DNA from: Auanema rhodensis
Taxonomy: Eukaryota > Animalia > Nematoda
Length of the DNA: 64,000 bases
Assembly (NCBI GenBank): GCA_964057225.1
Contig: OZ059899.1
Location: 620,001 to 684,000 of the forward strand
Direction of reading: 5' to 3'
The notes under the pieces: generated by a model
Database searches by the model: none
Told to the model about the DNA's origin: nothing
The model's input: only the letters and a program-made list of their open reading frames with translations
Program-made: the position numbers and the translations under genes
Shown: one piece after another, positions 1 through 51,847 of the stretch
Numbering within the stretch: position 1 is the stretch's first letter
Layout of the letters: the number at the start of each line of letters is the position of its first letter

Positions 1-880
1 GAAAACCGCATCTCTTTATCTTTCACGTGAAGCGAGTTACATACCAAGGGCACATCACGTGTACATTTAATTAGCATAAATTAAAGTTCACGTAAATTTC
101 AAAGTCATGGTTACCATGCACCAATATCAATAAAAATTTGTTTTTAGACTAATATGGACATGGGGAATCTAATTTTGAAAACCGCATCTCTTTATCTTTC
201 ACGTGAAGCGAGTTACATACCAAGTGCACATCACGTGTACATTTAATTAGCATAAATTAAAGTTCACGTGAATTTCAAAGTCATGGTTACCATGCACAAA
301 TATCAATAAAAATTTGTTTTTAGACTAATATGGACATGGGGAATCTAATTTTGAAAACCGCATCTCTTTATCTTTCACGTGAAGCGAGTTACATACCAAG
401 TGCACATCACGTGTACATTTAATTAGCATAAATTAAAGTTCACGTAAATTTCAAAGTCATGGTTACCATGCACCAATATCAATAAAAATTTGTTTTTAGA
501 CTAATATGGACATGGGGAATCTAATTTTGAAAACCGCATCTCTTTATCTTTCACGTGAAGCGAGTTACATACCAAGTGCACATCACGTGTACATTTAATT
601 AGCATAAATTAAAGTTCACGTAAATTTCAAAGTCATGGTTACCATGAACCAATATCAATAAAAATTTGTTTTTAGACTAATATGGACATGGGGAATCTAA
701 TTTTGAAAACCGCATCTCTTTATCGTTCACGTGAAGCGAGTTACATACCAAGTGCACATCACGTGTACATTTAATTAGCATAAATTAAAGTTCACGTAAA
801 TTTCAAAGTCATGGTTACCATGCACCAATATCAATAAAAATTTGTTTTTAGACTAATATGGACATGGGGAATCTAATTTT

Positions 881-972
881 GAAAACCGCATCTCTTTATC
901 TTTCACGTGAAGCGAGTTACATACCAAGTGCACATCACTTTAGACTAATATGGACATGGGGAATCTAATTTT
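881..972. repeat. Truncated 92-bp monomer (84-bp deletion of monomer positions 59-142)
   Basis: Junction CACATCAC|TTTAGACT at 938/939; monomer starts at 881 and 973. No microhomology or filler. Single copy. Confidence 0.95.
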
Positions 973-3900
973 GAAAACCGCATCTCTTTATCGTTCACGT
1001 GAAGCGAGTTACATACCAAGTGCACATCACGTGTACATTTAATTAGCATAAATTAAAGTTCACGTAAATTTCAAAGTCATGGTTACCATGCACCAATATC
1101 AATAAAAATTTGTTTTTAGACTAATATGGACATGGGGAATCTTATTTTGGAAACCGAATCTCTTTATCTTTCACGTGAAGCGAGTTACATACCAAGTGCA
1201 CATCACGTGTACATTTAATTAGCATAAATTGAAGTTCACGTAAATTTCAAAGTCATGGTTACCATGAACCAATATCAATAAAAATTTGTTTTTAGACTAA
1301 TATGGACATGGGGAATCTAATTTTGAAAACCGCATCTCTTTATCTTTCACGTGAAGCGAGTTACATACCAAGTGCACATCACGTGTACATTTAATTAGCA
1401 TAAATTAAAGTTCACGTAAATTTCAAAGTCATGGTTACCATGCACCAATATCAATAAAAAATTTTTTTTAGACTAATATGGACATGGGGAATCTAATTTT
1501 GAAAACCGCATCTCTTTATCTTTCACGTGAAGCGAGTTACATACCAAGTGCACATCACGTGTACATTTAATTAGCATAAATTAAAGTTCACGTAAATTTC
1601 AAAGTCATGGTTACCAAGCACCAATATCAATAAAAATTTGTTTTTAGACTAATATGGACATGGGGAATCTAATTTTGAAAACCGCATCTCTTTATCTTTC
1701 ACGTGAAGCGAGTTACATACCAAGGGCACATCACGTGTACATTTAATTAGCATAAATTAAAGCTCACGTAAATTTCAAAGTCATGGTTACCATGCACCAA
1801 TATCAATAAAAATTTGTTTTTAGACTAATATGGACATGGGGAATCTAATTTTGAAAACCGCATCTCTTTATCTTTCACGTGAAGCGAGTTACATACCAAG
1901 TGCACATCACGTGTACATTTAATTAGCATAAATTAAAGTTCACGTAAATTTCAAAGTCATGGTTACCATGAACCAATATCAATAAAAATTTGTTTTTAGA
2001 CTAATATGGACATGGGGAATCTAATTTTGAAAACCGCATCTCTTTATCTTTCACGTGAAGCGAGTTACATACCAAGGGCACATCACGTGTACATTTAATT
2101 AGCATAAATTAAAGTTCACGTAAATTTCAAAGTCATGGTTACCATGCACCAATATCAATAAAAATTTGTTTTTAGACTAATATGGACATGGGGAATCTAA
2201 TTTTGAAAACCGCATCTCTTTATCTTTCACGTGAAGCGAGTTACATACCAAGTGCACATCACGTGTACATTTAATTAGCATAAATTAAAGTTCACGTAAA
2301 TTTCAAAGTCATGGTTACCATGCACCAATATCAATAAAAATTTGTTTTTAGACTAATATGGACATGGGGAATCTAATTTTTAAAACCGCATCTCTTTATC
2401 TTTCACGTGAAGCGAGTTACATACCAAGGGCACATCACGTGTACATTTAATTAGCATAAATTAAAGTTCACGTAAATTTCAAAGTCATGGTTATCATGCA
2501 CCAATATCAATAAAAATTTGTTTTTAGACTAATATGGACATGGGGAATCTAATTTTGAAAACCGCATCTCTTTATCTTTCACGTGAAGCGAGTTACATAC
2601 CAAGGGCACATCACGTGTACATTTAATTAGCATAAATTAAAGTTCACGTAAATTTCAAAGTCATGGTTACCATGCACCAATATCAATAAAAATTTGTTTT
2701 TAGACTAATATGGACATGGGGAATCTAATTTTGAAAACCGCATCTCTTTATCTTTCACGTGAAGCGAGTTACATACCAAGTGCACATCACGTGTACATTT
2801 AATTAGCATAAATTAAAGTTCACGTAAATTTCAAAGTCATGGTTACCATGAACCAATATCAATAAAAATTTGTTTTTAGACTAATATGGACATGGGGAAT
2901 CTAATTTTGAAAACCGCATCTCTTTATCTCTCACGTGAAGCGAGTTACATACCAAGGGCACATCACGTGTACATTTAATTAGCATAAATTGAAGTTCACG
3001 TAAATTTCAAAGTCATGGTTACCATGAACCAATATCAATAAAAATTTGTTTTTAGACTAATATGGACATGGGGAATCTAATTTTGAAAACCGCATCTCTT
3101 TATCTTTCACGTGAAGCGAGTTACATACCAAGTGCACATCACGTGTACATTTAATTAGCATAAATTAAAGTTCACGTAAATTTCAAAGTCATGGTTACCA
3201 TGAACCAATATCAATAAAAATTTGTTTTTAGACTAATATGGAGATGGGGAATCTAATTTTGAAAACCGCATCTCTTTATCTTTCACGTGAAGCGAGTTAC
3301 ATACCAAGTGCACATCACGTGTACATTTAATTAGCATAAATTAAAGTTCACGTGAATTTCAAAGTCATGGTTACCATGCACAAATATCAATAAAAATTTG
3401 TTTTTAGACTAATATGGACATGGGGAATCTAATTTTGAAAACCGCATCTCTTTATCTTTCACGTGAAGCGAGTTACATACCAAGTGCACATCACGTGTAC
3501 ATTTAATTAGCATAAATTAAAGTTCACGTAAATTTCAAAGTCATGGTTACCATGAACCAATATCAATAAAAATTTGTTTTTAGACTAATATGGACATGGG
3601 TAATCTAATTTTGAAAACCGCATCTCTTTATCTTTCACGTGAAGCGAGTTACATACCAAGTGCACATCACGTGTACATTTAATTAGCATAAATTAAAGTT
3701 CACGTAAATTTCAAAGTCATGGTTACCATGAACCAATATCAATAAAAATTTGTTTTTAGACTAATATGGACATGGGGAATCTAATTTTGAAAACCGCATC
3801 TCTTTATCGTTCACGTGAAGCGAGTTACATACCAAGTGCACATCACGTGTACATTTAATTAGCATAAATTAAAGTTCACGTAAATTTCAAAGTCATGGTT

Positions 3901-6900
3901 ACCATGCACCAATATCAATAAAAATTTGTTTTTAGACTAATATGGACATGGGGAATCTAATTTTGGAAACCGCATCTCTTTATCTTTCACGTGAAGCGAG
4001 TTACATACCAAGTGCACATCACGTGTACATTTAATTAGCATAAATTGAAGTTCACGTAAATTTCAAAGTCATGGTTACCATGAACCAATATCAATAAAAA
4101 TTTGTTTTTAGACTAATATGGACATGGGGAATCTAATTTTGAAAACCGCATCTCTTTATCTTTCACGTGAAGCGAGTTACATACCAAGTGCACATCACGT
4201 GTACATTTAATTAGCATAAATTAAAGTTCACGTAAATTTCAAAGTCATGGTTACCATGCACCAATATCAATAAAAATTTTTTTTTAGACTAATATGGACA
4301 TGGGGAATCTAATTTTGAAAACCGCATCTCTTTATCTTTCACGTGAAGCGAGTTACATACCAAGTGCACATCACGTGTACATTTAATTAGCATAAATTAA
4401 AGTTCACGTAAATTTCAAAGTCATGGTTACCAAGCACCAATATCAATAAAAATTTGTTTTTAGACTAATATGGACATGGGGAATCTAATTTTGAAAACCG
4501 CATCTCTTTATCTTTCACGTGAAGCGAGTTACATACCAAGGGCACATCACGTGTACATTTAATTAGCATAAATTAAAGTTCACGTAAATTTCAAAGTCAT
4601 GGTTACCATGCACCAATATCAATAAAAATTTGTTTTTAGACTAATATGGACATGGGGAATCTAATTTTGAAAACCGCATCTCTTTATCTTTCACGTGAAG
4701 CGAGTTACATACCAAGTGCACACCACGTGTACATTTAATTAGCATAAATTAAAGTTCACGTAAATTTCAAAGTCATGGTTACCATGAACCAATATCAATA
4801 AAAATTTGTTTTTAGACTAATATGGACATGGGGAATCTAATTTTGAAAACCGCATCTCTTTATCGTTCACGTGAAGCGAGTCACATACCAAGTGCACATC
4901 ACGTGTACATTTAATTAGCATAAATTAAAGTTCACGTAAATTTCAAAGTCATGGTTACCATGAACCAATATCAATAAAAATTTGTTTTTAAACTAATATG
5001 GACATGGGGAATCTAATTTTGAAAACCGCATCTCTTTATCTTTCACGTGAAGCGAGTTACATACCAAGTGCACATCACGTGTACATTTAATTAGCATTAA
5101 TTGAAGTTCACGTAAATTTCAAAGTCATGGTTACCATGAACCAATATCAATAAAAATTTGTTTTTAGACTAATATGGACATGGGGAATCTAATTTTGAAA
5201 ACCGCATCTCTTTATCTTTCACGTGAAGCGAGTTACATACCAAGTGCACATCACGTGTACATTTAATTAGCATAAATTAAAGTTCACGTAAATTTCAAAG
5301 TCATGGTTACCATGAACCAATATCAATAAAAATTTGTTTTTAGACTAATATGGACATGGGGAATCTAATTTTGAAAACCGCATCTCTTTATCTTTCACGT
5401 GAAGCGAGTTACATACCAAGTGCACATCACGTGTACATTTAATTAGCATAAATTAAAGTTCACGTAAATTTCAAAGTCATGGTTACCATGAACCAATATC
5501 AATAAAAATTTGTTTTTAGACTAATATGGACATGGGGAATCTAATTTTGAAAACCGCATCTCTTTATCTTTCACGTGAAGCGAGTTACATACCAAGTGCA
5601 CATCACGTGTACATTTAATTAGCATAAATTGAAGTTCACGTAAATTTCAAAGTCATGGTTACCATGAACCAATATCAATAAAAATTTGTTTTTAGACTAA
5701 TATGGACATGGGGAATCTAATTTTGAAAACCGCATCTCTTTATCTTTCACGTGAAGCGAGTTACATACCAAGTGCACATCACGTGTACATTTAATTAGCA
5801 TAAATTAAAGTTCACGTAAATTTCAAAGTCATGGTTACCATGAACCAATATCAATAAAAATTTGTTTTTAGACTAATATGGACATGGGGAATCTAATTTT
5901 GAAAACCGCATCTCTTTATCTCTCACGTGAAGCGAGTTACATACCAAGGGCACGTCACGTGTACATTTAATTAGCATAAATTGAAGTTCACGTAAATTTC
6001 AAAGTCATGGTTACCATGAACCAATATCAATAAAAATTTGTTTTTAGACTAATATGGACATGGGGAATCTAATTTTGAAAACCGCATCTCTTTATCGTTC
6101 ACGTGAAGCGAGTTACATACCAAGTGCACATCACGTGTACATTTAATTAGCATAAATTAAAGTTCACGTAAATTTCAAAGTCATGGTTACCATGCACCAA
6201 TATCAATAAAAATTTGTTTTTAGACTAATATGGACATGGGGAATCTAATTTTGGAAACCGAATCTCTTTATCTTTCACGTGAAGCGAGTTACATACCAAG
6301 TGCACATCACGTGTACATTTAATTAGCATAAATTGAAGTTCACGTAAATTTCAAAGTCATGGTTACCATGAACCAATATCAATAAAAATTTGTTTTTAGA
6401 CTAATATGGACATGGGGAATCTAATTTTGAAAACCGCATCTCTTTATCTTTCACGTGAAGCGAGTTACATACCAAGTGCACATCACGTGTACATTTAATT
6501 AGCATAAATTAAAGTTCACGTAAATTTCAAAGTCATGGTTACCATGCACCAATATCAATAAAAATTTGTTTTTAGACTAATATGGACATGGGGAATCTAA
6601 TTTTGAAAACCGCATCTCTTTATTTTTCACGTTAAGCGAGTTACATACCAAGTGCACATCACGTGTACATTTAATTAGCATAAATTAAAGTTCACGTAAA
6701 TTTCAAAGTCATGGTTACCATGCACCAATATCAATAAAAATTTGTTTTTAGACTAATATGGACATGGGGAATCTAATTTTGAAAACCGCATCTCTTCATC
6801 TTTCACGTGAAGCGAGTTACATACCAAGTGCACATCACGTGTACATTTAATTAGCATAAATTAAAGTTCACGTAAATTTCAAAGTCATGGTTACCATGCA

Positions 6901-9900
6901 CCAATATCAATAAAAATTTGTTTTTAGACTAATATGGACATGGGGAATCTAATTTTGAAAACCGCATCTCTTTATCTTTCACGTGAAGCGAGTTACATAC
7001 CAAGTGCACATCACGTGTACATTTAATTAGCATAAATTAAAGTTCACGTAAATTTCAAAGTCATGGTTACCATGAACCAATATCAATAAAAATTTGTTTT
7101 TAGACTAATATGGACATGGGGAATCTAATTTTGAAAACCGCATCTCTTTATTTTTCACGTGAAGCGAGTTACATACCAAGTGCACATCACGTGTACATTT
7201 AATTAGCATAAATTAAAGTTCACGTAACTTTCAAAGTCATGGTTACCATGCACCAATATCAATAAAAATTTGTTTTTAGACTAATATGGACATGGGGAAT
7301 CTAATTTTGAAAACCGCATCTCTTTATCTTTCACGTGAAGCGAGTTACATACCAAGTGCACATCACGTGTACATTTAATTAGCATAAATTAAAGTTCACG
7401 TAAATTTCAAAGTCATGGTTACCATGAAGCAATATCAATAAAAATTTGTTCTGAGACTAATATGGACATGGGGAATCTAATTTTGAAAACCGCATCTCTT
7501 TATCTTTCACGTGAAGCGAGTTACATACCAAGTGCACATCACGTGTACATTTAATTAGCATAAATCAAAGTTCACGTAAATTTCAAAGTCATGGTTACCA
7601 TGAACCAATATCAATAAAAATTTGTTTTTAGACTAATATGGACATGGGGAATCTAATTTTGAAAACCGCATCTCTTTATCTTTCACGTGAAGCGAGTTAC
7701 ATACCAAGTGCACATCACGTGTACATTTAATTAGCATAAATTAAAGTTCACGTAAATTTCAAAGTCATGGTTACCATGAAGCAATATCAATAAAAATTTG
7801 TTTTTAGACTAATATGGACATGGGGAATCTAATTTTGAAAACCGCATCTCTTTATCTTTCACGTGAAGCGAGTTACATACCAAGTGCACATCACGTGTAC
7901 ATTTAATTAGCATTAATTAAAGTTCACGTAAATTTCAAAGTCATGGTTACCATGAACCAATATCAATAAAAATTTGTTTTTAGACTAATATGGACATGGG
8001 GAATCTAATTTTGAAAACCTCATCTCTTTATCTTTCACGTGAAGCGAGTTACATACCAAGTGCACATCACGTGTACATTTAATTAGCATAAATTAAAGTT
8101 CACGTAAATTTCAAAGTCATGGTTACCATGAACTAATATCAATAAAAATTTGTTTTTAGACTAATATGGACATGGGGAATCTAATTTTGAAAACCGCATC
8201 TCTTTATCTTTCACGTGAAGCGAGTTACATACCAAGTGCACATCACGTGTACATTTAATTAGCATAAATTAAAGTTCACGTAAATTTCAAAGTCATGGTT
8301 ACCATGAACCAATATCAATAAAAATTTGTTTTTAGACTAATATGGACATGGGGAATCTAATTTTGAAAACCGCATCTCTTTATCTTTCACGTGAAGCGAG
8401 TTACATACCAAGTGCACATCACGTGTACATTTAATTAGCATAAATTAAAGTTCACGTAAATTTCAAAGTCATGGTTACCATGAACCAATATCAATAAAAA
8501 TTTGTTTTTAGACTAATATGGACATGGGGAATCTAATTTTGAAAACCGCATCTCTTTATCTTTCACGTGAAGCGAGTTACATACCAAGTGCACATCACGT
8601 GTACATTTAATTAGCATAAATTAAAGTTCACGTAAATTTCAAAGTCATGGTTACCATGCACCAATATCAATAAAAATTTGTTTTTAGACTAATATGGACA
8701 TGGGGAATCTAATTTTGAAAACCGCATCTCTTTATCTTTCACGTGAAGCGAGTTACATACCAAGTGCACATCACGTGTACATTTAATTAGCATAAATTAA
8801 AGTTCACGTAAATTTCAAAGTCATGGTTACCATGAACCAATATCAATAAAAATTTGTTTTTAGACTAATATGGACATGGGGAATCTAATTTTGAAAACCG
8901 CATCTCTTGATCGTTCACGTGAAGCGAGTTACATACCAAGTGCACATCACGTGTACATTTAATTAGCATAAATTAAAGTTCACGTAAATTTCAAAGTCAT
9001 GGTTACCATGCACCAATATCAATAAAAATTTGTTTTTAGACTAATATGGACATGGGGAATCTAATTTTGGAAACCGAATCTCTTTATCTTTCACGTGAAG
9101 CGAGTTACATACCAAGAGCACATCACGTGTACATTTAATTAGCATAAATTGAAGTTCACGTAAATTTCAAAGTCATGGTTACCATGAACCAATATCAATA
9201 AAAATTTGTTTTTAGACTAATATGGACATGGGGAATCTAATTTTGAAAACCGCATCTCTTTATCTTTCACGTGAAGCGAGTTACATATCAAGTGCACATC
9301 ACGTGTACATTTAATTAGCATAAATTAAAGTTCACGTAAATTTCAAAGTCATGGTTACCATGCACCAATATCAATAAAAATTTGTTTTTAGACTAATATG
9401 GACATGGGGAATCTAATTTTGAAAACCGCATCTCTTTATCTTTCACGTGAAGCGAGTTACATACCAAGTGCACATCACGTGTACATTTAATTAGCATAAA
9501 TTAAAGTTCACGTAAATTTCAAAGTCATGGTTACCATGAACCAATATCAATAAAAATTTGTTTTTAGACTAATATGGACATGGGGAATCTAATTTTGAAA
9601 ACCGCATCTCTTTATTTTTCACGTGAAGCGAGTTACATACCAAGTGCACATCACGTGTACATTTAATTAGCATAAATTAAAGTTCACGTAACTTTCAAAG
9701 TCATGGTTACCATGCACCAATATCAATAAAAATTTGTTTTTAGACTAATATGGACATGGGGAATCTAATTTTGAAAACCGCATCTCTTTATCTTTCACGT
9801 GAAGCGAGTTACATACCAAGTGCACATCACGTGTACATTTAATTAGCATAAATTAAAGTTCACGTAAATTTCAAAGTCATGGTTACCATGCACCAATATC

Positions 9901-10713
9901 AATAAAAATTTGTTTTTAGACTAATATGGACATGGGGAATCTGATTTTGAAAACCGCATCTCTTTATCTTTCACGTGAAGCGAGTTACATACCAAGTGCA
10001 CATCACGTGTACATTTAATTAGCATAAATTAAAGTTCACGTAAATTTCAAAGTCATGGTTACCATGCACCAATATCAATAACAATTTGTTTTTAGACTAA
10101 TATGGACATGGGGAATCTAATTTTGAAAACCGCATCTCTTTATCTTTCACGTGAAGCGAGTTACATACCAAGTGCACATCACGTGTACATTTAATTAGCA
10201 TAAATTGAAGTTCACGTAAATTTCAAAGTCATGGTTACCATGAACCAATATCAATAAAAATTTGTTTTTAGACTAATATGGACATGGGGAATCTAATTTT
10301 GAAAACCGCATCTCTTTATCTTTCACGTGAAGCGAGTTACATACCAAGTACACATCACGTGTACATTTAATTAGCATAAATTAAAGTTCACGTAAATTTC
10401 AAAGTCATGGTTACCATGCACCAATATCAATAAAAATTTGTTTTTAGACTAATATGGACATGGGGAATCTAATTTTGAAAACCGCATCTCTTTATCTTTC
10501 ACGTGAAGCGAGTTACATACCAAGTGCACATCACGTGTACATTTAATTAGCATAAATTAAAGTTCACGTAAATTTCAAAGTCATGGTTACCATGAACCAA
10601 TATCAATAAAAATTTGTTTTTAGACTAATATGGACATGGGGAATCTAATTTTGAAAACCGCATCTCTTTATCTTTCACGTGAAGCGAGTTACATACCAAG
10701 TGCACATCACGTG

Positions 10714-10911
10714 AACCTTATAACCTGTGATTCGAACTTATAACCTGTGATTCGAACTATAACCTGTGATTCGAACCTATAACCTGTGATTCGAACGTAT
10801 AACCTGTGATTCGAACGTATAACCTGTGATTCGAACTTATAACCTGTGATTCGAACTTATAACCTGTGATTCGAACTTATAACCTGTGATTCGAACAATA
10901 AACCCGTTCAA
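10714..10911. other. 198-bp non-satellite insertion with apparent 5-bp target-site duplication (ACGTG at 10709-10713 and 10912-10916)
   Basis: The normal CATC-ACGTG-TACATTT reads CATC-ACGTG-[AACCTTATAACC...AATAAACCCGTTCAA]-ACGTG-TACATTT. Flanking monomer starts are 10653 and 11032 (379 = 176+198+5). Confidence 0.95.
10718..10896. repeat. Minisatellite inside the insertion: 9 units of (N)TATAACCTGTGATTCGAAC, 19-20 bp
   Basis: Units start at 10718, 10738, 10758 (19 bp), 10777, 10797, 10817, 10837, 10857 and 10877. The 19-nt core is identical in all nine. Confidence 0.97.
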
Positions 10912-13319
10912 ACGTGTACATTTAATTAGCATAAATTAAAGTTCACGTAAATTTCAAAGTCATGGTTACCATGCACCAATATCAATAAAAATTTGTTTTT
11001 AGACTAATATGGACATGGGGAATCTAATTTTGAAAACCGCATCTCTTCATCTTTCACGTGAAGCGAGTTACATACCAAGTGCACATCACGTGTACATTTA
11101 ATTAGCATAAATTAAAGTTCACGTAAATTCCAAAGTCATGGTTACCATGCACCAATATCAATAAAAATTTGTTTTTAGACTAATATGGACATGGGGAATC
11201 TAATTTTGAAAACCGCATCTCTTCATCTTTCACGTGAAGCGAGTTACATACCAAGTGCACATCACGTGTACATTTAATTAGCATAAATTAAAGTTCACGT
11301 AAATTTCAAAGTCATGGTTACCATGCACCAATATCAATAAAAATTTGTTTTTAGACTAATATGGACATGGGGAATCTAATTTTGAAAACCGCATCTCTTT
11401 ATCTTTCACGTGAAGCGAGTTACATACCAAGTGCACATCACGTGTACATTTAATTAGCATAAATTAAAGTTCACGTAAATTTCAAAGTCATGGTTACCAT
11501 GCACCAATATCAATAAAAATTTGTTTTTAGACTAATATGAACATGGGGAATCTAATTTTGAAAACCGCATCTCTTCATCTTTCACGTGAAGCGAGTTACA
11601 TACCAAGTGCACATCACGTGTACATTTAATTAGCATAAATTAAAGTTCACGTAAATTTCAAAGTCATGGTTACCATGCACCAATATCAATAAAAATTTGT
11701 TTTTAGACTAATATGGACATGGGGAATCTAATTTTGAAAACCGCATCTCTTTATCTTTCACGTGAAGCGAGTTACATACCAAGTGCACATCACGTGTACA
11801 TTTAATTAGCATAAATTAAAGTTCACGTAAATTTCAAAGTCATGGTTACCATGAACCAATATCAATAAAAATTTGTTTTTAGACTAATATGGACATGGGG
11901 AATCTAATTTTGAAAACCGCATCTCTTTATTTTTCACGTGAAGCGAGTTACATACCAAGTGCACATCACGTGTACATTTAATTAGCATAAATTGAAGTTC
12001 ACGTAACTTTCAAAGTCATGGTTACCATGCACCAATATCAATAAAAATTTGTTTTTAGACTAATATGGACATGGGGAATCTAATTTTGAAAACCGCATCT
12101 CTTTATCTTTCACGTGAAGCGAGTTACATACCAAGTGCACATCACGTGTACATTTAATTAGCATTAATTAAAGTTCACGTAAATTTCAAAGTCATGGTTA
12201 CCATGAACCAATATCAATAAAAATTTGTTTTTAGACTAATATGGACATGGGGAATCTGATTTTGAAAACCTCATCTCTTTATCTTTCACGTGAAGCGAGT
12301 TACATACCAAGTGCACATCACGTGTACATTTAATTAGCATAAATTAAAGTTCACGTAAATTTCAAAGTCATGGTTACCATGAACTAATATCAATAAAAAT
12401 TTGTTTTTAGACTAATATGGACATGGGGAATCTAATTTTGAAAACCGCATCTCTTTATCTTTCACGTGAAGCGAGTTACATACCAAGTGCACATCACGTG
12501 TACATTTAATTAGCATAAATTAAAGTTCACGTAAATTTCAAAGTCATGGTTACCATGAACCAATATCAATAAAAATTTGTTTTTAGACTAATATGGACAT
12601 GGGGAATCTAATTTTGAAAACCGCATCTCTTTATCTTTCACGTGAAGCGAGTTACATACCAAGTGCACATCACGTGTACATTTAATTAGCATAAATTAAA
12701 GTTCACGTAAATTTCAAAGTCATGGTTACCATGCACCAATATCAATAAAAATTTGTTTTTAGACTAATATGGACATGGGGAATCTAATTTTGAAAACCGC
12801 ATCTCTTTATCTTTCACGTGAAGCGAGTTACATACCAAGTGCACATCACGTGTACATTTAATTAGCATAAATTAAAGTTCACGTAAATTTCAAAGTCATG
12901 GTTACCATGCACCAATATCAATAAAAATTTGTTTTTAGACTAATATGGACATGGGGAATCTAATTTTGAAAACCGCATCTCTTTATCTTTCACGTGAAGC
13001 GAGTTACATACCAAGTGCACATCACGTGTACATTTAATTAGCATTAATTAAAGTTCACGTAAATTTCAAAGTCATGGTTACCATGAACCAATATCAATAA
13101 AAATTTGTTTTTAGACTAATATGGACATGGGGAATTTAATTTTGAAAACCTCATCTCTTTATCTTTCACGTGAAGCGAGTTACATACCAAGTGCACATCA
13201 CGTGTACATTTAATTAGCATAAATTAAAGTTCACGTAAATTTCAAAGTCATGATTACCATGAACTAATATCAATAAAAATTTGTTTTTAGACTAATATGG
13301 ACATGGGGAATCTAATTTT

Positions 13320-13469
13320 GAAAACCGCATCTCTTTATCTTAGCACATCACGTGTACATTTAATTAGCATAAATGAAAGTTCACGTAAATTTCAAAGTCA
13401 TGATTACCATGAACTAATATCAATAAAAATTTGTTTTTAGACTAATATGGACATGGGGAATCTAATTTT
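13320..13469. repeat. Truncated 150-bp monomer (net 26-bp deletion removing the TTCACGTGAA palindrome)
   Basis: TCTCTTTATCTT-A-GCACATCAC at 13330-13351; monomer starts are 13320 and 13470. It shares the rare TGATTACCATGAACTA variant with the preceding monomer. Confidence 0.93.
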
Positions 13470-16400
13470 GAAAACCGCATCTCTTTATCTTTCACGTGAA
13501 GCGAGTTACATACCAAGTGCACATCACGTGTACATTTAATTAGCATAAATTAAAGTTCACGTAAATTTCAAAGTCATGGTTACCATGAACCAATATCAAT
13601 AAAAATTTGTTTTTAGACTAATATGGACATGGGGAATCTAATTTTGAAAACCGCATCTCTTTATCTTTCACGTGAAGCGAGTTACATACCAAGTGCACAT
13701 CACGTGTACATTTAATTAGCATAAATTAAAGTTCACGTAAATTTCAAAGTCATGGTTATTATGAACCAATATCAATAAAAATTTGTTTTTAGACTAATAT
13801 GGACATGGGGAATCTAATTTTGAAAACCGCATCTCTTTATCATTCACGTGAAGCGAGTAACATACTAAGTGCACATCACGTGTACATTTAATTAGCATAA
13901 ATTAAAGTTCACGTAAATTTCAAAGTCATGGTTACCATGCACCAATATCAATAAAAATTTGTTTTTAGACTAATATGGACATGGGGAATCTAATTTTGAA
14001 AACCGCATCTCTTTATCTTTCACGTGAAGCGAGTTACATACCAAGTGCACATCACGTGTACATTTAATTAGCATAAATTAAAGTTCACGTAAATTTCAAA
14101 GTCATGGTTACCATGCACCAATATCAATAAAAATTTGTTTTTAGACTAATATGGACATGGGGAATCTAATTTTGAAAACCGCATCTCTTCATCTTTCACG
14201 TGAAGCGAGTTACATACCAAGTGCACATCACGTGTACATTTAATTAGCATAAATTAAAGTTCACGTAAATTTCAAAGTCATGGTTACCATGCACCAATAT
14301 CAATAAAAATTTGTTTTTAGACTAATATGGACATGGGGAATCTAATTTTGAAAACCGCATCTCTTTATCTTTCACGTGAAGCGAGTTACATACCAAGTGC
14401 ACATCACGTGTACATTTAATTAGCATAAATTAAAGTTCACGTAAATTTCAAAGTCATGGTTACCATGCACCAATATCAATAAAAATTTGTTTTTAGACTA
14501 ATATGGACATGGGGAATCTAATTTTGAAAACCGCATCTCTTTATCTTTCACGTGAAGCGAGTTACATACCAAGTGCACATCACGTGTACATTTAATTAGC
14601 ATAAATTAAAGTTCACGTAAATTTCAAAGTCATGGTTACCATGCACCAATATCAATAAAAATTTGTTTTTAGACTAATATGGACATGGGGAATCTAATTT
14701 TGAAAACCGCATCTCTTTATCTTTCACGTGAAGCGAGTTACATACCAAGTGCACATCACGTGTACATTTAATTAGCATAAATTAAAGTTCACGTAAATTT
14801 CAAAGTCATGGTTACCATGCACCAATATCAATAAAAATTTGTTTTTAGACTAATATGGACATGGGGAATCTAATTTTGAAAACCGCATCTCTTTATCTTT
14901 CACGTGAAGCGAGTTACATACCAAGTGCACATCACGTGTACATTTAATTAGCATTAATTAAAGTTCACGTAAATTTCAAAGTCATGGTTACCATGAACCA
15001 ATATCAATAAAAATTTGTTTTTAGACTAATATGGACATGGGGAATCTAATTTTGAAAACCTCATCTCTTTATCTTTCACGTGAAGCGAGTTACATACCAA
15101 GTGCACATCACGTGTACATTTAATTAGCATAAATTAAAGTTCACGTAAATTTCAAAGTCATGATTACCATGAACTAATATCAATAAAAATTTGTTTTTAG
15201 ACTAATATGGACATGGGGAATCTAATTTTGAAAACCGCATCTCTTTATCTTTCACGTGAAGCGAGTTACATACCAAGTGCACATCACGTGTACATTTAAT
15301 TAGCATAAATTAAAGTTCACGTAAATTTCAAAGTCATGGTTACCATGAACCAATATCAATAAAAATTTGTTTTTAGACTAATATGGACATGGGGAATCTA
15401 ATTTTGAAAACCGCATCTCTTTATCTTTCACGTGAAGCGAGTTACATACCAAGTGCACATCACGTGTACATTTAATTAGCATAAATTAAAGTTCACGTAA
15501 ATTTCAAAGTCATGGTTATTATGAACCAATATCAATAAAAATTTGTTTTTAGACTAATATGGACATGGGGAATCTAATTTTGAAAACCGCATCTCTTTAT
15601 CATTCACGTGAAGCGAGTAACATACTAAGTGCACATCACGTGTACATTTAATTAGCATAAATTAAAGTTCACGTAAATTTCAAAGTCATGGTTACCATGC
15701 ACCAATATCAATAAAAATTTGTTTTTAGACTAATATGGACATGGGGAATCTAATTTTGAAAACCGCATCTCTTTATCTTTCACGTGAAGCGAGTTACATA
15801 CCAAGTGCACATCACGTGTACATTTAATTAGCATAAATTAAAGTTCACGTAAATTTCAAAGTCATGGTTACCATGCACCAATATCAATAAAAATTTGTTT
15901 TTAGACTAATATGGACATGGGGAATCTAATTTTGAAAACCGCATCTCTTCATCTTTCACGTGAAGCGAGTTACATACCAAGTGCACATCACGTGTACATT
16001 TAATTAGCATAAATTAAAGTTCACGTAAATTTCAAAGTCATGGTTACCATGCACCAATATCAATAAAAATTTGTTTTTAGACTAATATGGACATGGGGAA
16101 TCTAATTTTGAAAACCGCATCTCTTTATCATTCACGTGAAGCGAGTAACATACTAAGTGCACATCACGTGTACATTTAATTAGCATAAATTAAAGTTCAC
16201 GTAAATTTCAAAGTCATGGTTACCATGCACCAATATCAATAAAAATTTGTTTTTAGACTAATATGGACATGGGGAATCTAATTTTGAAAACCGCATCTCT
16301 TTATCTTTCACGTGAAGCGAGTTACATACCAAGTGCACATCACGTGTACATTTAATTAGCATAAATTAAAGTTCACGTAAATTTCAAAGTCATGGTTACC

Positions 16401-17261
16401 ATGCACCAATATCAATAAAAATTTGTTTTTAGACTAATATGGACATGGGGAATCTAATTTTGAAAACCGCATCTCTTCATCTTTCACGTGAAGCGAGTTA
16501 CATACCAAGTGCACATCACGTGTACATTTAATTAGCATAAATTAAAGTTCACGTAAATTTCAAAGTCATGGTTACCATGCACCAATATCAATAAAAATTT
16601 GTTTTTAGACTAATATGGACATGGGGAATCTAATTTTGAAAACTGCATCTCTTCATCTTTCACGTGAAGCGAGTTACATACCAAGTGCACATCACGTGTA
16701 CATTTAATTAGCATAAATTAAAGTTCACGTAAATTTCAAAGTCATGGTTACCATGCACCAATATCAATAAAAATTTGTTTTTAGACTAATATGGACATGG
16801 GGAATCTAATTTTGAAAACCGCATCTCTTCATCTTTCACGTGAAGCGAGTTACATACCAAGTGCACATCACGTGTACATTTAATTAGCATAAATTAAAGT
16901 TCACGTAAATTTCAAAGTCATGGTTACCATGCACCAATATCAATAAAAATTTGTTTTTAGACTAATATGGACATGGGGAATCTAATTTTGAAAACCGCAT
17001 CTCTTTATCTTTCACGTGAAGCGAGTTACATACCAAGTGCACATCACGTGTACATTTAATTAGCATAAATTAAAGTTCACGTAAATTTCAAAGTCATGGT
17101 TACCATGAACCAATATCAATAAAAATTTGTTTTTAGACTAATATGGACATGGGGAATCTAATTTTGAAAACCGCATCTCTTTATTTTTCACGTGAAGCGA
17201 GTTACATACCAAGTGCACATCACGTGTACATTTAATTAGCATAAATTAAAGTTCACGTAAC

Positions 17262-20200
17262 TTTCAAAGTCATGGTTACCATGCACCAATATCAATAAAA
17301 ATTTGTTTTTAGACTAATATGGACATGGGGAATCTAATTTTGAAAACCGCATCTCTTTATCTTTCACGTGAAGCGAGTTACATACCAAGTGCACATCACG
17401 TGTACATTTAATTAGCATTAATTAAAGTTCACGTAAATTTCAAAGTCATGGTTACCATGAACCAATATCAATAAAAATTTGTTTTTAGACTAATATGGAC
17501 ATGGGGAATCTAATTTTGAAAACCTCATCTCTTTATCTTTCACGTGAAGCGAGTTACATACCAAGTGCACATCACGTGTACATTTAATTAGCATAAATTA
17601 AAGTTCACGTAAATTTCAAAGTCATGGTTACCATGAACTAATATCAATAAAAATTTGTTTTTAGACTAATATGGACATGGGGAATCTAATTTCGAAAACC
17701 GCATCTCTTTATCTTTCACGTGAAGCGAGTTACATACCAAGTGCACATCACGTGTACATTTAATTAGCATAAATTAAAGTTCACGTAAATTTCAAAGTCA
17801 TGGTTACCATGAACCAATATCAATAAAAATTTGTTTTTAGACTAATATGGACATGGGGAATCTAATTTTGAAAACCGCATCTCTTTATCTTTCACGTGAA
17901 GCGAGTTACATACCAAGTGCACATCACGTGTACATTTAATTAGCATAAATTAAAGTTCACGTAAATTTCAAAGTCATGGTTACCATGCACCAATATCAAT
18001 AAAAATTTGTTTTTAGACTAATATGGACATGGGGAATCTAATTTTGAAAACCGCATCTCTTTATCTTTCACGTGAAGCGAGTTACATACCAAGTGCACAT
18101 CACGTGTACATTTAATTAGCATAAATTAAAGTTCACGTAAATTTCAAAGTCATGGTTACCATGCACCAATATCAATAAAAATTTGTTTTTAGACTAATAT
18201 GGACATGGGGAATCTAATTTTGAAAACCGCATCTCTTTATCTTTCACGTGAAGCGAGTTACATACCAAGTGCACATCACGTGTACATTTAATTAGCATTA
18301 ATTAAAGTTCACGTAAATTTCAAAGTCATGGTTACCATGAACCAATATCAATAAAAATTTGTTTTTAGACTAATATGGACATGGGGAATCTAATTTTGAA
18401 AACCGCATCTCTTTATCTTTCACGTGAAGCGAGTTACATACCAAGTGCACATCACGTGTACATTTAATTAGCATAAATTAAAGTTCACGTAAATTTCAAA
18501 GTCATGGTTACCATGAACCAATATCAATGAAAATTTGTTTTTAGACTAATATGGACATGGGGAATCTAATTTTGAAAACCGCATCTCTTTATCTTTCACG
18601 TGAAGCGAGTTACATACCAAGTTCACATCACGTGTACATTTAATTAGCATAAATTAAAGTTCACGTAAATTTCAAAGTCATGGTTACCATGAACCAATAT
18701 CAATAAAAATTTGTTTTTAGACTAATATGGACATGGGGAATCTGATTTTGAAAACCGCATCTCTTTATCTTTCACGTGAAGCGAGTTACATACCAAGTGC
18801 ACATCACGTGTACATTTAATTAGCATAAATTAAAGTTCACGTAAAATTCAAAGTCATGGTTACCATGCACCAATATCAATAAAAATTTGTTTTTAGACTA
18901 ATATGGACATGGGGAATCTAATTTTGAAAACCGCATCTCTTTATCTTTTACGTGAAGCGAGTTACATACCAAGTGCACATCACGTGTACATTTTATTAGC
19001 ATAAATTAAAGTTCACGTAAATTTCAAAGTCATGGTTACCATGAACCAATATCAATAAAAATTTGTTTTTAGACTAATATGGACATGGGGAATCTAATTT
19101 TGAAAACCGCATCTCTTTATCTTTCACGTGAAGCGAGTTACATACCAAGTGCACATCACGTGTACATTTAATTAGCATAAATTAAAGTTCACGTAAAATT
19201 CAAAGTCATGGTTACCATGCACCAATATCAATAAAAATTTGTTTTTAGACTAATATGGACATGGGGAATCTAATTTGGAAAACCGCATCTCTTTATCTTT
19301 TACGTGAAGCGAGTTACATACCAAGTGCACATCACGTGTACATTTAATTAGCATAAATTAAAGTTCACGTAAATTTCAAAGTCATGGTTACCATGAACCA
19401 ATATCAATAAAAATTTGTTTTTAGACTAATATGGACATGGGGAATCTAATTTTGAAAACCGCATCTCTTTATCTTTCACGTGAAGCGAGTTACATACCAA
19501 GTGCACATCACGTGTACATTTAATTAGCATAAATTAAAGTTCACGTAAATTTCAAAGTCATGGTTACCATGAACCAATATCAATAAAAATTTGTTTTTAG
19601 ACTAATATGGACATGGGGAATCTAATTTTGAAAACCGCATCTCTTTATCTTTCACGTGAAGCGAGTTACATACCAAGTGCACATCACGTGTACACTTAAT
19701 TAGCATAAATTAAAGTTCACGTAAAATTCAAAGTCATGGTTACCATGCACCAATATCAATAAAAATTTGTTTTTAGACTAATATGGACATGGGGAATCTA
19801 ATTTTGAAAACCGCATCTCTTTATCTTTTACGTGAAGCGAGTTACATACCAAGTGCACATCACGTGTACATTTAATTAGCATAAATTAAAGTTCACGTAA
19901 ATTTCAAAGTCATGGTTACCATGAACCAATATCAATAAAAATTTGTTTTTAGACTAATATGGACATGGGGAATCTAATTTTGAAAACCGCATCTCTTTAT
20001 CTTTCACGTGAAGCGAGTTACATACCAAGTGCACATCACGTGTACATTTAATTAGCATAAATTAAAGTTCACGTAAATTTCAAAGTCATGGTTACCATGA
20101 ACAAATATCAATAAAAATTTGTTTTTAGACTAATATGGACATGGGGAATCTAATTTTGAAAACCGCATCTCTTTATCTTTCACGTGAAGCGAGTTACATA

Positions 20201-23200
20201 CCAAGTGCACATCACGTGTACATTTAATTAGCATAAATCAAAGTTCACGTAAATTTCAAAGTCATGGTTACCATGAACCAATATCAATAAAAATTTGTTT
20301 TTAGACTAATATGGACATGGGGAATCTAATTTTGAAAACCGCATCTCTTTATCTTTCACGTGAAGCGAGTTACATACCAAGTGCACATCACGTGTACATT
20401 TAATTAGCATAAATTAAAGTTCACGTAAAGTTCAAAGTCATGGTTACCATGCACCAATATCAATAAAAATTTGTTTTTAGACTAATATGGACATGGGGAA
20501 TCTAATTTTGAAAACCGCATCTCTTTATCTTTCACGTGAAGCGAGTTACATACCAAGTGCACATCACGTGTACATTTAATTAGCATAAATTAAAGTTCAC
20601 GTAAATTTCAAAGTCATGGTTACCATGAACCAATATCAATAAAAATTTGTTTTTAGACTAATATGGACATGGGGAATCTAATTTTGAAAACCGCATCTCT
20701 TTATCTTTCACGTGAAGCGAGTTACATACCAAGTGCACATCACGTGTACATTTAATTAGCATAAATTAAAGTTCACGTAAATTTCAAAGTCATGGTTACC
20801 ATGAACCAATATCAATAAAAATTTGTTTTTAGACTAATATGGACATGGGGAATCTAATTTTGAAAACCGCATCTCTTTATCTTTCACGTGAAGCGAGTTA
20901 CATACCAAGTGCACATCACGTGTACATTTAATTAGCATAAATTAAAGTTCACGTAAATTTCAAAGTCATGGTTACCATGAACCAATATCAATAAAAATTT
21001 GTTTTTAGACTAATATGGACATGGGGAATCTAATTTTGAAAACCGCATCTCTTTATCTTTCACGTGAAGCGAGTTACATACCAAGTGCACATCACGTGTA
21101 CATTTAATTAGCATAAATTAAAGTTCACGTAAATTTCAAAGTCATGGTTACCATGCACCAATATCAATAAAAATTTGTTTTTAGACTAATATGGACATGG
21201 GGAATCTAATTTTGAAAACCGCATCTCTTTATCTTTCACGTGAAGCGAGTTACATACCAAGTGCACATCACGTGTACATTTAATTAGCATAAATTAAAGT
21301 TCACGTAAATTTCAAAGTCATGGTTACCATGCACCAATATCAATAAAAATTTGTTTTTAGACTAATATGGACATGGGGAATCTAATTTTGAAAACCGCAT
21401 CTCTTTATCTTTCACGTGAAGCGAGTTACATACCAAGTGCACATCACGTGTACATTTAATTAGCATTAATTAAAGTTCACGTAAATTTCAAAGTCATGGT
21501 TACCATGAACCAATATCAATAAAAATTTGTTTTTAGACTAATATGGACATGGGGAATCTAATTTTGAAAACCTCATCTCTTTATCTTTCACGTGAAGCGA
21601 GTTACATACCAAGTGCACATCACGTGTACATTTAATTAGCATAAATTAAAGTTCACGTAAATTTCAAAGTCATGGTTACCATGAACTAATATCAATAAAA
21701 ATTTGTTTTTAGACTAATATGGACATGGGGAATCTAATTTTGAAAACCGCATCTCTTTATCTTTCACGTGAAGCGAGTTACATACCAAGTGCACATCACG
21801 TGTACATTTAATTAGCATAAATTAAAGTTCACGTAAATTTCAAAGTCATGGTTACCATGAACCAATATCAATAAAAATTTGTTTTTAGACTAATATGGAC
21901 ATGGGGAATCTAATTTTGAAAACCGCATCTCTTTATCTTTCACGTGAAGCGAGTTACATACCAAGTGCACATCACGTGTACATTTAATTAGCATAAATTA
22001 AAGTTCACGTAAATTTCAAAGTCATGGTTACCATGCACCAATATCAATAAAAATTTGTTTTTAGACTAATATGGACATGGGGAATCTAATTTTGAAAACC
22101 GCATCTCTTTATCTTTCACGTGAAGCGAGTTACATACCAAGTGCACATCACGTGTACATTTAATTAGCATAAATTAAAGTTCACGTAAATTTCAAAGTCA
22201 TGGTTACCATGCACCAATATCAATAAAAATTTGTTTTTAGACTAATATGGACATGGGGAATCTAATTTTGAAAACCGCATCTCTTTATCTTTCACGTGAA
22301 GCGAGTTACATACCAAGTGCACATCACGTGTACATTTAATTAGCATTAATTAAAGTTCACGTAAATTTCAAAGTCATGGTTACCATGAACCAATATCAAT
22401 AAAAATTTGTTTTTAGACTAATATGGACATGGGGAATCTAATTTTGAAAACCGCATCTCTTTATCTTTCACGTGAAGCGAGTTACATACCAAGTGCACAT
22501 CACGTGTACATTTAATTAGCATAAATTAAAGTTCACGTAAATTTCAAAGTCATGGTTACCATGAACCAATATCAATGAAAATTTGTTTTTAGACTAATAT
22601 GGACATGGGGAATCTAATTTTGAAAACCGCATCTCTTTATCTTTCACGTGAAGCGAGTTACATACCAAGTGCACATCACGTGTACATTTAATTAGCATAA
22701 ATTAAAGTTCACGTAAATTTCAAAGTCATGGTTACCATGAACCAATATCAATAAAAATTTGTTTTTAGACTAATATGGACATGGGGAATCTGATTTTGAA
22801 AACCGCATCTCTTTATCTTTCACGTGAAGCGAGTTACATACCAAGTGCACATCACGTGTACATTTAATTAGCATAAATTAAAGTTCACGTAAAATTCAAA
22901 GTCATGGTTACCATGCACCAATATCAATAAAAATTTGTTTTTAGACTAATATGGACATGGGGAATCTAATTTTGAAAACCGCATCTCTTTATCTTTTACG
23001 TGAAGCGAGTTACATACCAAGTGCACATCACGTGTACATTTTATTAGCATAAATTAAAGTTCACGTAAATTTCAAAGTCATGGTTACCATGAACCAATAT
23101 CAATAAAAATTTGTTTTTAGACTAATATGGACATGGGGAATCTAATTTTGAAAACCGCATCTCTTTATCTTTCACGTGAAGCGAGTTACATACCAAGTGC

Positions 23201-25357
23201 ACATCACGTGTACATTTAATTAGCATAAATTAAAGTTCACGTAAAATTCAAAGTCATGGTTACCATGCACCAATATCAATAAAAATTTGTTTTTAGACTA
23301 ATATGGACATGGGGAATCTAATTTGGAAAACCGCATCTCTTTATCTTTTACGTGAAGCGAGTTACATACCAAGTGCACATCACGTGTACATTTAATTAGC
23401 ATAAATTAAAGTTCACGTAAATTTCAAAGTCATGGTTACCATGAACCAATATCAATAAAAATTTGTTTTTAGACTAATATGGACATGGGGAATCTAATTT
23501 TGAAAACCGCATCTCTTTATCTTTCACGTGAAGCGAGTTACATACCAAGTGCACATCACGTGTACATTTAATTAGCATAAATTAAAGTTCACGTAAATTT
23601 CAAAGTCATGGTTACCATGAACCAATATCAATAAAAATTTGTTTTTAGACTAATATGGACATGGGGAATCTAATTTTGAAAACCGCATCTCTTTATCTTT
23701 CACGTGAAGCGAGTTACATACCAAGTGCACATCACGTGTACACTTAATTAGCATAAATTAAAGTTCACGTAAAATTCAAAGTCATGGTTACCATGCACCA
23801 ATATCAATAAAAATTTGTTTTTAGACTAATATGGACATGGGGAATCTAATTTTGAAAACCGCATCTCTTTATCTTTTACGTGAAGCGAGTTACATACCAA
23901 GTGCACATCACGTGTACATTTAATTAGCATAAATTAAAGTTCACGTAAATTTCAAAGTCATGGTTACCATGAACCAATATCAATAAAAATTTGTTTTTAG
24001 ACTAATATGGACATGGGGAATCTAATTTTGAAAACCGCATCTCTTTATCTTTCACGTGAAGCGAGTTACATACCAAGTGCACATCACGTGTACATTTAAT
24101 TAGCATAAATTAAAGTTCACGTAAATTTCAAAGTCATGGTTACCATGAACAAATATCAATAAAAATTTGTTTTTAGACTAATATGGACATGGGGAATCTA
24201 ATTTTGAAAACCGCATCTCTTTATCTTTCACGTGAAGCGAGTTACATACCAAGTGCACATCACGTGTACATTTAATTAGCATAAATCAAAGTTCACGTAA
24301 ATTTCAAAGTCATGGTTACCATGAACCAATATCAATAAAAATTTGTTTTTAGACTAATATGGACATGGGGAATCTAATTTTGAAAACCGCATCTCTTTAT
24401 CTTTCACGTGAAGCGAGTTACATACCAAGTGCACATCACGTGTACATTTAATTAGCATAAATTAAAGTTCACGTAAAGTTCAAAGTCATGGTTACCATGC
24501 ACCAATATCAATAAAAATTTGTTTTTAGACTAATATGGACATGGGGAATCTAATTTTGAAAACCGCATCTCTTTATCTTTCACGTGAAGCGAGTTACATA
24601 CCAAGTGCACATCACGTGTACATTTAATTAGCATAAATTAAAGTTCACGTAAATTTCAAAGTCATGGTTACCATGAACCAATATCAATAAAAATTTGTTT
24701 TTAGACTAATATGGACATGGGGAATCTAATTTTGAAAACCGCATCTCTTTATCTTTCACGTGAAGCGAGTTACATACCAAGTGCACATCACGTGTACATT
24801 TAATTAGCATAAATTAAAGTTCACGTAAATTTCAAAGTCATGGTTACCATGAACCAATATCAATAAAAATTTGTTTTTAGACTAATATGGACATGGGGAA
24901 TCTAATTTTGAAAACCGCATCTCTTTATCTTTCACGTGAAGCGAGTTACATACCAAGTGCACATCACGTGTACATTTAATTAGCATAAATTAAAGTTCAC
25001 GTAAATTTCAAAGTCATGGTTACCATGAACCAATATCAATAAAAATTTGTTTTTAGACTAATATGGACATGGGGAATCTAATTTTGAAAACCGCATCTCT
25101 TTATCTTTCACGTGAAGCGAGTTACATACCAAGTGCACATCACGTGTACATTTAATTAGCATAAATTAAAGTTCACGTAAATTTCAAAGTCATGGTTACC
25201 ATGCACCAATATCAATAAAAATTTGTTTTTAGACTAATATGGACATGGGGAATCTAATTTTGAAAACCGCATCTCTTTATCTTTCACGTGAAGCGAGTTA
25301 CATACCAAGTGCACATCACGTGTACATTTAATTAGCATAAATTAAAGTTCACGTAAA
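17262..25357. repeat. Tandem duplication of a 23-monomer (4048-bp) block; boundaries approximate
   Basis: Rare variants recur at offset 4048: 17525/21573, 18529/22577, 19277/23325, 20430/24478. Confidence 0.88.
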
Positions 25358-25764
25358 TTTCAAAGTCATGGTTACCATGAACCAATATCAATAAAAATTT
25401 GTTTTTAGACTAATATGGACATGGGGAATCTAATTTTGAAAACCGCATCTCTTTATCTTTCACGTGAAGCGAGTTACATACCAAGTGCACATCACGTGTA
25501 CATTTAATTAGCATAAATTAAAGTTCACGTAAATTTCAAAGTCATGGTTACCATGAACCAATATCAATAAAAATTTGTTTTTAGACTAATATGGACATGG
25601 GGAATCTAATTTTGAAAACCGCATCTCTTTATCTTTCACGTGAAGCGAGTTACATACCAAGTGCACATCACGTGTACATTTAATTAGCATAAATTAAAGT
25701 TCACGTAAATTTCAAAGTCATGGTTACCATGCACCAATATCAATAAAAATTTGTTTTTAGACTA

Positions 25765-49700: not shown

Positions 49701-51847
49701 TTTGTTTTTAGACTAATATGGACATGGGGAATCTAATTTTGAAAACCGCATCTTTTTATCTTTCACGTGAAGCGAGTTACATACCAAGTGCACATCACGT
49801 GTACATTTAATTAGCATAAATTAAAGTTCACGTAAATTTCAAAGTCATGGTTACCATGAACCAATATCAATAAAAATTTGTTTTTAGACTAATATGGACA
49901 TGGGGAATCTAATTTTGAAAACCGCATTTTTTTATCTTTCACGTGAAGCGAGTTACATACCAAGTGCACATCACGTGTACATTTAATTAGCATAAATTAA
50001 AGTTCACGTAAATTTCAAAGTCATGGTTACCATGAACCAATATCAATAAAAATTTGTTTTTAGACTAATATGGACATGGGGAATCTAATTTTGAAAACCG
50101 CATCTCTTTATCTTTCACGTGAAGCGAGTTACATACCAAGTGCACATCACGTGTACATTTAATTCGCATAAATTAAAGTTCACGTAAATTTCAAAGTCAT
50201 GGTTACCATGCACCAATATCAATAAAAATTTGTTTTTAGACTAATATGGACATGGGGAATCTAATTTTGAAAACCGCATTTCTTTATCTTTCACGTGAAG
50301 CGAGTTACATACCAAGTGCACATCACGTGTACATTTAATTAGCATAAATTAAAGTTCACGTAAATTTCAAAGTCATGGTTACCATGCACCAATATCAATA
50401 AAAATTTGTTTTTAGACTAATATGGACATGGGGAATCTAATTTTGAAAACCGCATCTCTTTATCTTTCACGTGAAGCGAGTTACATACCAAGTGCACATC
50501 ACGTGTACATTTAATTAGCATAAATCAAAGTTCACGTAAATTTCAAAGTCATGGTTACCATGAACCAATATCAATAAAAATTTGTTTTTAGACTAATATG
50601 GACATGGGGAATCTAATTTTGAAAACCGCATCTTTTTATCTTTCACGTGAAGCGAGTTACATACCAAGTGCACATCACGTGTACATTTAATTAGCATAAA
50701 TTAAAGTTCACGTAAATTTCAAAGTCATGGTTACCATGCACCAATATCAATAAAAATTTGTTTTTAGACTAATATGGACATGGGGAATCTAATTTTGAAA
50801 ACCGCATCTCTTTATCTTTCACGTGAAGCGAGTTACATACCAAGTGCACATCACGTGTACATTTAATTAGCATAAATTAAAGTTCACGTAAATTTCAAAG
50901 TCATGGTTACCATGAACCAATATCAATTAATATTTGTTTTTAGACTAATATGGACATGGGGAATCTAACTTTGAAAACCGCATCTCTTTATCTTTCACGT
51001 GAAGCGAGTTACATACCAAGTGAACATCACGTGTACATTTAATTAGCATAAATTAAAGTTCACGTAAATTTCAAAGTCATGGTTACCATGAACCAATATC
51101 AATTAATATTTGTTTTTAGACTAATATGGACATGGGGAATCTAATTTTGAAAACCGCATCTCTTTATCTTTCACGTGAAGCGAGTTACATACCAAGTGCA
51201 CATCACGTGTACATTTAATTAGCATAAATTAAAGTACACGTAAATTTCAAAGTCATGGTTACCATGAACCAATATCAATAAAAATTTGTTTTTAGACTAA
51301 TATGGACATAGGGAATCTAATTTTGAAAACCGCATCTCTTTATCTTTCACGTGAAGCGAGTTACATACCAAGTGCACATCACGTGTACATTTAATTAGCA
51401 TAAATTAAAGTTCACGTAAATTTCAAAGTCATGGTTACCATGAACCAATATCAATAAAAATTTGTTTTTAGACTAATATGGACATGGGGAATCTAATTTT
51501 GAAAACCGCATCTCTTTATCTTTCACGTGAAGCGAGTTACATACCAAGTGCACATCACGTGTACATTTAATTAGCATAAATTAAAGTTCACGTAAATTTC
51601 AAAGTCATGGTTACCATGAACCAATATCAATAAAAATTTGTTTTTAGACTAATATGGACATGGGGAATCTAATTTTGAAAACCGCATCTCTTTATCTTTC
51701 ACGTGAAGCGAGTTACATACCAAGTGCACATCACGTGTACATTTAATTAGCATAAATTAAAGTTCACGTAAATTTCAAAGTCATGGTTACCATGCACCAA
51801 TATCAATAAAAATTTGTTTTTAGACTACTTTTGACTGTTTTTAGACC
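25765..51847. repeat. Ten dispersed copies of a fused 295-bp dimer (77-bp deletion plus 20-bp filler CTTTTGACTGTTTTTAGACC)
   Basis: The filler starts at 25765, 26764, 28115, 33514, 36097, 38504, 40383, 45782, 49245 and 51828. All spacings equal n x 176 - 57. Confidence 0.95.
28115..48160. repeat. About 8-kb block duplicated at a 12,268-bp offset (about 28.1-35.9 kb vs 40.4-48.2 kb); boundaries approximate
   Basis: Markers match at offset 12268: filler 28115/40383 and 33514/45782, TTTTCAGACT 28403/40671, TAATTCGC 35138/47406. The match fails at 48169 (AATTAATATT variant absent at 35901). Confidence 0.88.

Follow-up and report, generated by a model that had tools for sequence, protein, structure and literature searches.

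What kind of event could set a 198-base insert, most of it copies of a single short word, cleanly into one monomer of a satellite array, and what does the insert record of how it was written? The question arises in a 64,000-nucleotide stretch of DNA, which was analysed whole and is referred to here as the window. The entire window (1..64000, + strand) is an uninterrupted AT-rich satellite array built on a 176-bp monomer, and its 341 clean monomers depart from the consensus by about 1.5 differences each. Transitions are found at 2 of the 10 CpG sites of the satellite against 21 of the 46 other C/G sites (P 0.17), and this lack of an excess at CpG would fit either an unmethylated host or conserved CACGT motifs.

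A duplicated target in a satellite monomer

The monomer that hosts the insert measures 379 bases (176 + 203). The insert itself occupies 198 of these (10714-10911) and is bounded by an ACGTG at 10709-10713 (+ strand), corresponding to monomer positions 29-33 and to the second of three CACGT motifs, and by another copy at 10912-10916 (+ strand), from which the satellite resumes in register. Taking out the insert together with one ACGTG restores a monomer of 176 bases in which just two common variants remain, and no satellite base is lost at the site. The target motif is intact in 339 of the 341 clean monomers. An apparent duplication of at least five bases rarely arises from a blunt random insert (0.76% of trials, a chance of 0.0076), which supports a staggered cut; the original prediction had proposed such a cut from the duplicated ACGTG and the absence of satellite loss, and the 379-base monomer bears out each of these points. 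At the left junction (10714..10718, + strand) AAC is followed by a two-base spacer, CT. This AAC equals the final three bases of the repeated core described below, with the G of the target providing a one-base overlap. The short motifs on which the prediction drew, namely TGAAC at 10712, GTTCA at 10906, AATAAA at 10897, CACG at 10708, AACG at 10911 and GTTCACGT at 10941, are all where it had placed them. However, the snap-back priming that it suggested for the left junction gains no specific support, because this junction matches the monomer over nine bases equally well in the direct and the inverted orientation.

The insert had also been described as occurring once, as against a filler-bearing 295-bp variant amplified tenfold, and this holds within the window. 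The 295-bp form is one of three other structural variants seen there, whose breakpoints in monomer coordinates are 30/115 (92-bp variant), 123/25 (295-bp variant) and 170/22 (326-bp variant). Each of the three has one breakpoint within seven bases of the duplicated site at 29-33, a clustering with a chance of about 0.003 to 0.018 for an interval chosen after the fact, which is suggestive only of a breakpoint hotspot near the insertion site. The 92-bp and 326-bp spacings belong to single-copy deletions at 938/939 and 13341-13343, and in two of the three variants the other breakpoint falls near monomer positions 115-123. The ten copies of the 295-bp variant lie at 25765-25784 and at nine more places up to about 51830; in this variant a deletion joins monomer position 123 to 25 by way of a 20-base filler. 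By its letters, the filler appears to be an imperfect copy of its own left flank (11-base shared word), the signature of templated end-joining, and this match suggests that templated end-joining acts in the satellite array. In X1, one of the runs compared below, two contigs carry, behind 10706, a loose end of 20 letters that does not resemble the satellite; so close to the insertion site, it could reflect a further insertion or an artefact.

Cores, junctions and tail of the insert

No less than 180 of the 198 bases of the insert form a nine-copy tandem array with a unit of about 20 bp (10717..10896, + strand). Its nine identical 19-nt cores start at 10719, 10739, 10758, 10778, 10798, 10818, 10838, 10858 and 10878, and the spacers between them are, in order, T, none, C, G, G, T, T and T. 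From left to right, the insert comprises AAC, the two-base spacer, the nine cores with their spacers and a 15-nt tail. All variation is confined to the core-core junction, with 0 changes in the 171 core bases. At the background rate of the satellite, this invariance is in itself unremarkable (P 0.23); the chance that all changes should fall at one position of 20 is 1.1e-4 if four events are counted and 2.5e-3 if three are, and the chance of four junction events lying within one base is 3.4e-3. Read on the bottom strand, the base added over the eight junctions is A in four, C in two and G in one, and is absent in the remaining one.

The tail (10897..10911, + strand) is unique sequence that begins with AATAAA (10897-10902) and ends in two A. 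It contains no poly(A) run, and the 3' poly(A) or simple-repeat tail that is usual, if not universal, for TPRT insertions is absent. These 15 nt would represent the 3' end of the inserted element. When 34 bases are shuffled, an AATAAA falls among the last 22 with a chance of 0.024, and the satellite monomer itself contains this motif. A 3' hairpin on the + strand is no better than in shuffles, whether folded as RNA (z -0.54) or as DNA (z -0.16). The tail was also tried as a decayed core unit (P 0.13), a reading that we did not adopt. When core and tail are compared with the satellite, the best local score is 7, where shuffles mostly reach 8-9, and the longest shared word is 7; as the two are unrelated to the satellite, the template would have come from outside it.

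On the minus strand, each core (10727-10737 in the first) carries a candidate motif that would resemble the pol III B box consensus, and Rfam gives no tRNA match at the insert. Its three matches over 10500-11100, at E 2-4.5, all lie far below the family thresholds, and two tandem cores have no exact match in the metagenome collection. The single plasmid BLAST record, in which a tandem array of 21-bp units lies next to a rep gene (79% identity), was rejected: its unit differs, and the match was put down to chance inflated by the repeats. This array (198-309 of record L001, 5.3 copies), upstream of the replication gene, probably consists of iterons and is unrelated. Neither the satellite nor the core unit was identified in print by a search of the main text of papers; supplements may contain the satellite or the element.

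Recurrence in other samples and a longer variant

Twenty-one runs are listed for the stretch, with no RNA run among them; 19 contain part of it, and nine, from three studies and under three organism labels, contain at least half of its words. Contigs were compared for four of the 21 (X1, X2, X3 and X6), which span three studies and three organism labels; X1 may be the source of the window, and without it the comparison still covers two studies and three labels. All four runs yield a contig identical to an inner piece of the array (10729/10730-10807, 0 differences), including the rare no-spacer, C and G junctions. Among the contigs listed, the left junction is found in X1 (10688-10745, 0 differences) and the right junction in X2, X3 and X6 (10880-10937/10939, 0 differences), and none covers the entire insert. 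Because the identical inner piece recurs in four of four runs, the insert is likely neither an assembly artefact nor a private recent event. The earlier description of it as single-copy and recent thus stands as regards its single occurrence in the window, but its recency is unsupported outside it and is further weakened by the right junction, which is deeper than the array in two of the three runs that list both pieces. In ten further listed runs (four with label A, three with B and one each with D, E and F), the share of sampled words present is 0.30-0.40, close to the 0.41 that the satellite alone would give, which is only a lead towards presence/absence variation of the insert.

Contig depth is no copy number, and even within a run its ratios are only roughly indicative; the graph simplification also drops short matches and weak branches, so that copies at other targets could be missed. 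Relative to the unique piece, the G-unit and T-unit cycles stand at 1.48 and 2.85 in X3 and at 1.69 and 3.53 in X6, where a nine-unit array alone would give 1.45 and 3.05. The G-cycle ratio in X1 is 1.59, and the T region is deeper in X1 and X2, where it is not decodable. Because the cycle depths in X3 and X6 match the nine-unit expectation, these runs point to no large pool of the unit elsewhere from which the array might have been copied, and this argues against both a telomeric repeat and a donor minisatellite family.

The depth of the right-junction contig relative to the array piece is 3.3 in X2, 4.3 in X6 and 0.82 in X3. In X2, ten other letters precede 10880 in this contig as a loose end. 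In X3, a 315-letter contig fits over just 60 letters (10880-10939), and as its end at 10939 is shared with the X6 contig, its excess would lie to the left. Given the greater depth of the right junction in X2 and X6 and the other letters to the left of 10880 in X2, a longer variant exists that has the same 32-nt end (10880..10911, + strand) at the same satellite position. Just left of 10880 the array core differs from this variant by two extra bases. The copies that share this end could be independent insertions or one insertion multiplied by recombination.

Origin of the array and its likeness to known systems

As to how the array itself was made, we think it quite probable that templated synthesis ran repeatedly over an interval bounded by the same two points, and that each restart brought in an extra or incorrect base. 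For the event as a whole our preference is tentative, falling a little short of an even chance: the insert would be the 5'-truncated end of a retroelement, placed at a 5-base staggered cut, the last word of which was re-copied with an untemplated base at each junction. The source is likely a retroelement of the non-LTR type, of which the insert would represent no more than the very 3' end (about 34-36 nt), and the nine-unit array was likely written in a single integration event, with 0-2 untemplated or miscopied bases per restart. In such a TPRT-type insertion, a nick in the bottom strand would prime copying from the 3' end of the element, that is, the tail; copying would halt at a fixed template boundary, a base would be added and synthesis would restart at the core end, nine times over, either by template jumping of the reverse transcriptase or by abortive second-strand priming on short cDNA. 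The last round would end after about four bases and join the top strand via a one-base overlap, leaving ACGTG twice.

The clean 5-bp duplication without target loss argues for this TPRT-type reading, as does the fixed right end with different letters to its left in X2, which is the polarity of 5'-truncated copies; the nine invariant cores and the confinement of all four junction states to one position point to an array written in one event. The R2 reverse transcriptase is described as adding untemplated bases and as requiring them for template jumps (PMC8857657), R2 5' junctions formed in cells are reported to include "extra template" and untemplated bases (PMC11331408), and TPRT products are described as carrying target duplications and 5' truncations, with tails that may or may not contain poly(A) (PMC2881922). 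Against it stand the want of a poly(A) or simple-repeat tail, of an ORF and of an Rfam match at family threshold, together with an AATAAA that is weak (0.024) and a 3' hairpin that does not rise above shuffles. The master element was not seen, and the longer variant is known from ten letters only. The restarts occur at the core end and not at the tail end, a placement left unexplained by simple end-to-end jumping, and the two extra bases to the left of 10880 likewise count against the TPRT-type reading, as does the X3 right junction, which is not deeper than the array (0.82). Depth is moreover rough, short branches are dropped and no listed contig runs across the whole insert. Finally, identical junctions in several copies could also come from one integration followed by host recombination, the explanation offered for centromeric satellite transposon copies with identical target duplications (10.64898/2026.09.17.752431). 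A bolder version, which we regard as speculative and distinctly unlikely, is that there is a retroelement specific to the satellite, so far undescribed, which cuts the 176-bp repeat at its CATCACGTG site, that its reverse transcriptase, behaving like telomerase in the germline, re-copies a stretch of its own RNA into a one-step minisatellite, and that failed cuts there also explain the three other variants that break at most seven bases away.

Alternatively, polymerase-theta-type end-joining might have refilled a gap, by short rounds of synthesis one after another, when the body of an older, ACGTG-duplicated insert was lost, with its right end as the template. We judge this somewhat unlikely, although it has in its favour the longer and deeper variant that ends in the same right junction, a T-type unit that would pass for a restart on a one-base C overlap, and the 20-base filler of the 295-bp variant, which has a word in common with its flank. 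Primer-template switching is described as running in cycles primed by a single base (PMC5068794), and in flies complex insertions made of imperfect repeats are reported (PMC2895639). The insert was not copied from the satellite flank, the right end of an older insert being the source that could serve, and the loss of target bases typical of this pathway would be found only relative to a longer ancestral insert. The deletion would also need to end no more than a few bases from where the old left junction lay, and nine rounds of equal 19-nt extent would be extreme next to the inserts described, which are short and heterogeneous, with imperfect repeats of 5-8 nt and a wild-type mean of 5.5 nt (PMC2895639). 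An ordinary minisatellite in the inserted fragment, grown by slippage and unequal exchange and altered by point mutations, is improbable: adjacent units of one type (G,G and T,T,T) are what local duplication would give and unchanged core bases are not unusual (P 0.23), but every change lies on one position of 20 (1e-4 to 3e-3), and the order of units over 10729-10807 is constant in four of four runs under three organism labels, unlike that of an unstable array.

The original prediction had also read the ends as LTR/TIR-like, which would make the insert a solo LTR or a small TIR element running from TG to CA over 10712-10910, its 4-bp duplication later mutated in one copy. The inverted match of TGAAC with GTTCA and the AATAAA near the right end fit this description, which we nevertheless consider very improbable. 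Inverted termini of at least five bases within three bases of both insert ends occur in shuffles with a chance of 0.058, which is not significant; the left AAC is plainly the end of a core unit; and the mismatched duplication (CACG/AACG) that it requires appears in that form in all three right-junction contigs listed, whereas the 5-bp parse requires no mismatch. Telomerase products in which units of about 20 nt vary at one boundary may resemble the insert array, and telomerase might have added an interstitial telomeric repeat at a break. This is extremely unlikely, as in X3 and X6 the unit cycles reach just 1.5-3.5 times the depth of the unique piece, where a telomeric repeat would be far deeper. 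The unit is unlikely to be an abundant telomeric repeat, having nine-unit depth in X3 and X6 and, for the G-cycle, also in X1, and a literature search for the motif gave no relevant context. Element-mediated insertion and break repair, the two options initially put forward, remain the best explanations, though the argument then made for them omits the junction-variable array, which is the most telling feature of the insert.

The insert offers a clean natural record of a minisatellite seemingly born in one synthesis event, with a restart signature at each junction. If the reverse transcriptase of a retroelement was responsible, it would attest to serial template re-use in vivo, lying between retroelement copying and telomerase-like repeat addition, and would point to a satellite-targeting element; if host repair was, iterative end-joining would here have run to unusual length and uniformity. 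Under both readings, the insert can serve as a marker to date and follow satellite turnover across related lineages. The component mechanisms are known, and a limited search of the main text of open-licence papers found no earlier account of such an array, nine-fold and variable at its junctions, at a duplicated target.

Among classes of mobile element, TIR DNA transposons and MITEs end in inverted repeats of at least about 10 bp, and the best inverted match near the ends of the insert is of five bases. The TG...CA parse for a solo LTR comes without a perfect 4-6 bp duplication. Helitrons have no target duplication and a strong 3' hairpin, whereas the insert has a duplication and a hairpin not above shuffles. 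Cp1, a SINE-like element at a specific site in the centromeric repeats of Chironomus, offers a lead only, being likewise short, modular and at a fixed satellite site. With the transposons of centromeric satellites it shares the presence, in several copies, of a single junction within the satellite; those described are recognisable LTR and LINE elements, whereas the insert is a 198-base remnant with a junction-variable array (10.64898/2026.09.17.752431). Penelope-like elements are described with a telomerase-related reverse transcriptase, partial-tandem structures and short target duplications (PMC3846280). Neither a pseudo-LTR of about 200 unique bases nor an ORF, in that group one for RT/GIY-YIG, was seen in the insert. 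Repeated short templated rounds, one-base overlaps and restart errors are reminiscent of polymerase theta end joining as reported (PMC5068794, PMC2895639), from which the insert differs in its duplicated target, in a template that is not the satellite flank and in rounds that are longer, more numerous and uniform. With 5'-truncated TPRT insertions and R2 junctions, as these are described (PMC2881922, PMC11331408, PMC8857657), it has in common the target duplication and would share a fixed 3' end with a variable 5' side and untemplated bases at jumps; unlike them, it shows neither such a tail nor an ORF, carries nine serial 19-nt internal copies in place of one extra template, and sits in a satellite rather than in rDNA.
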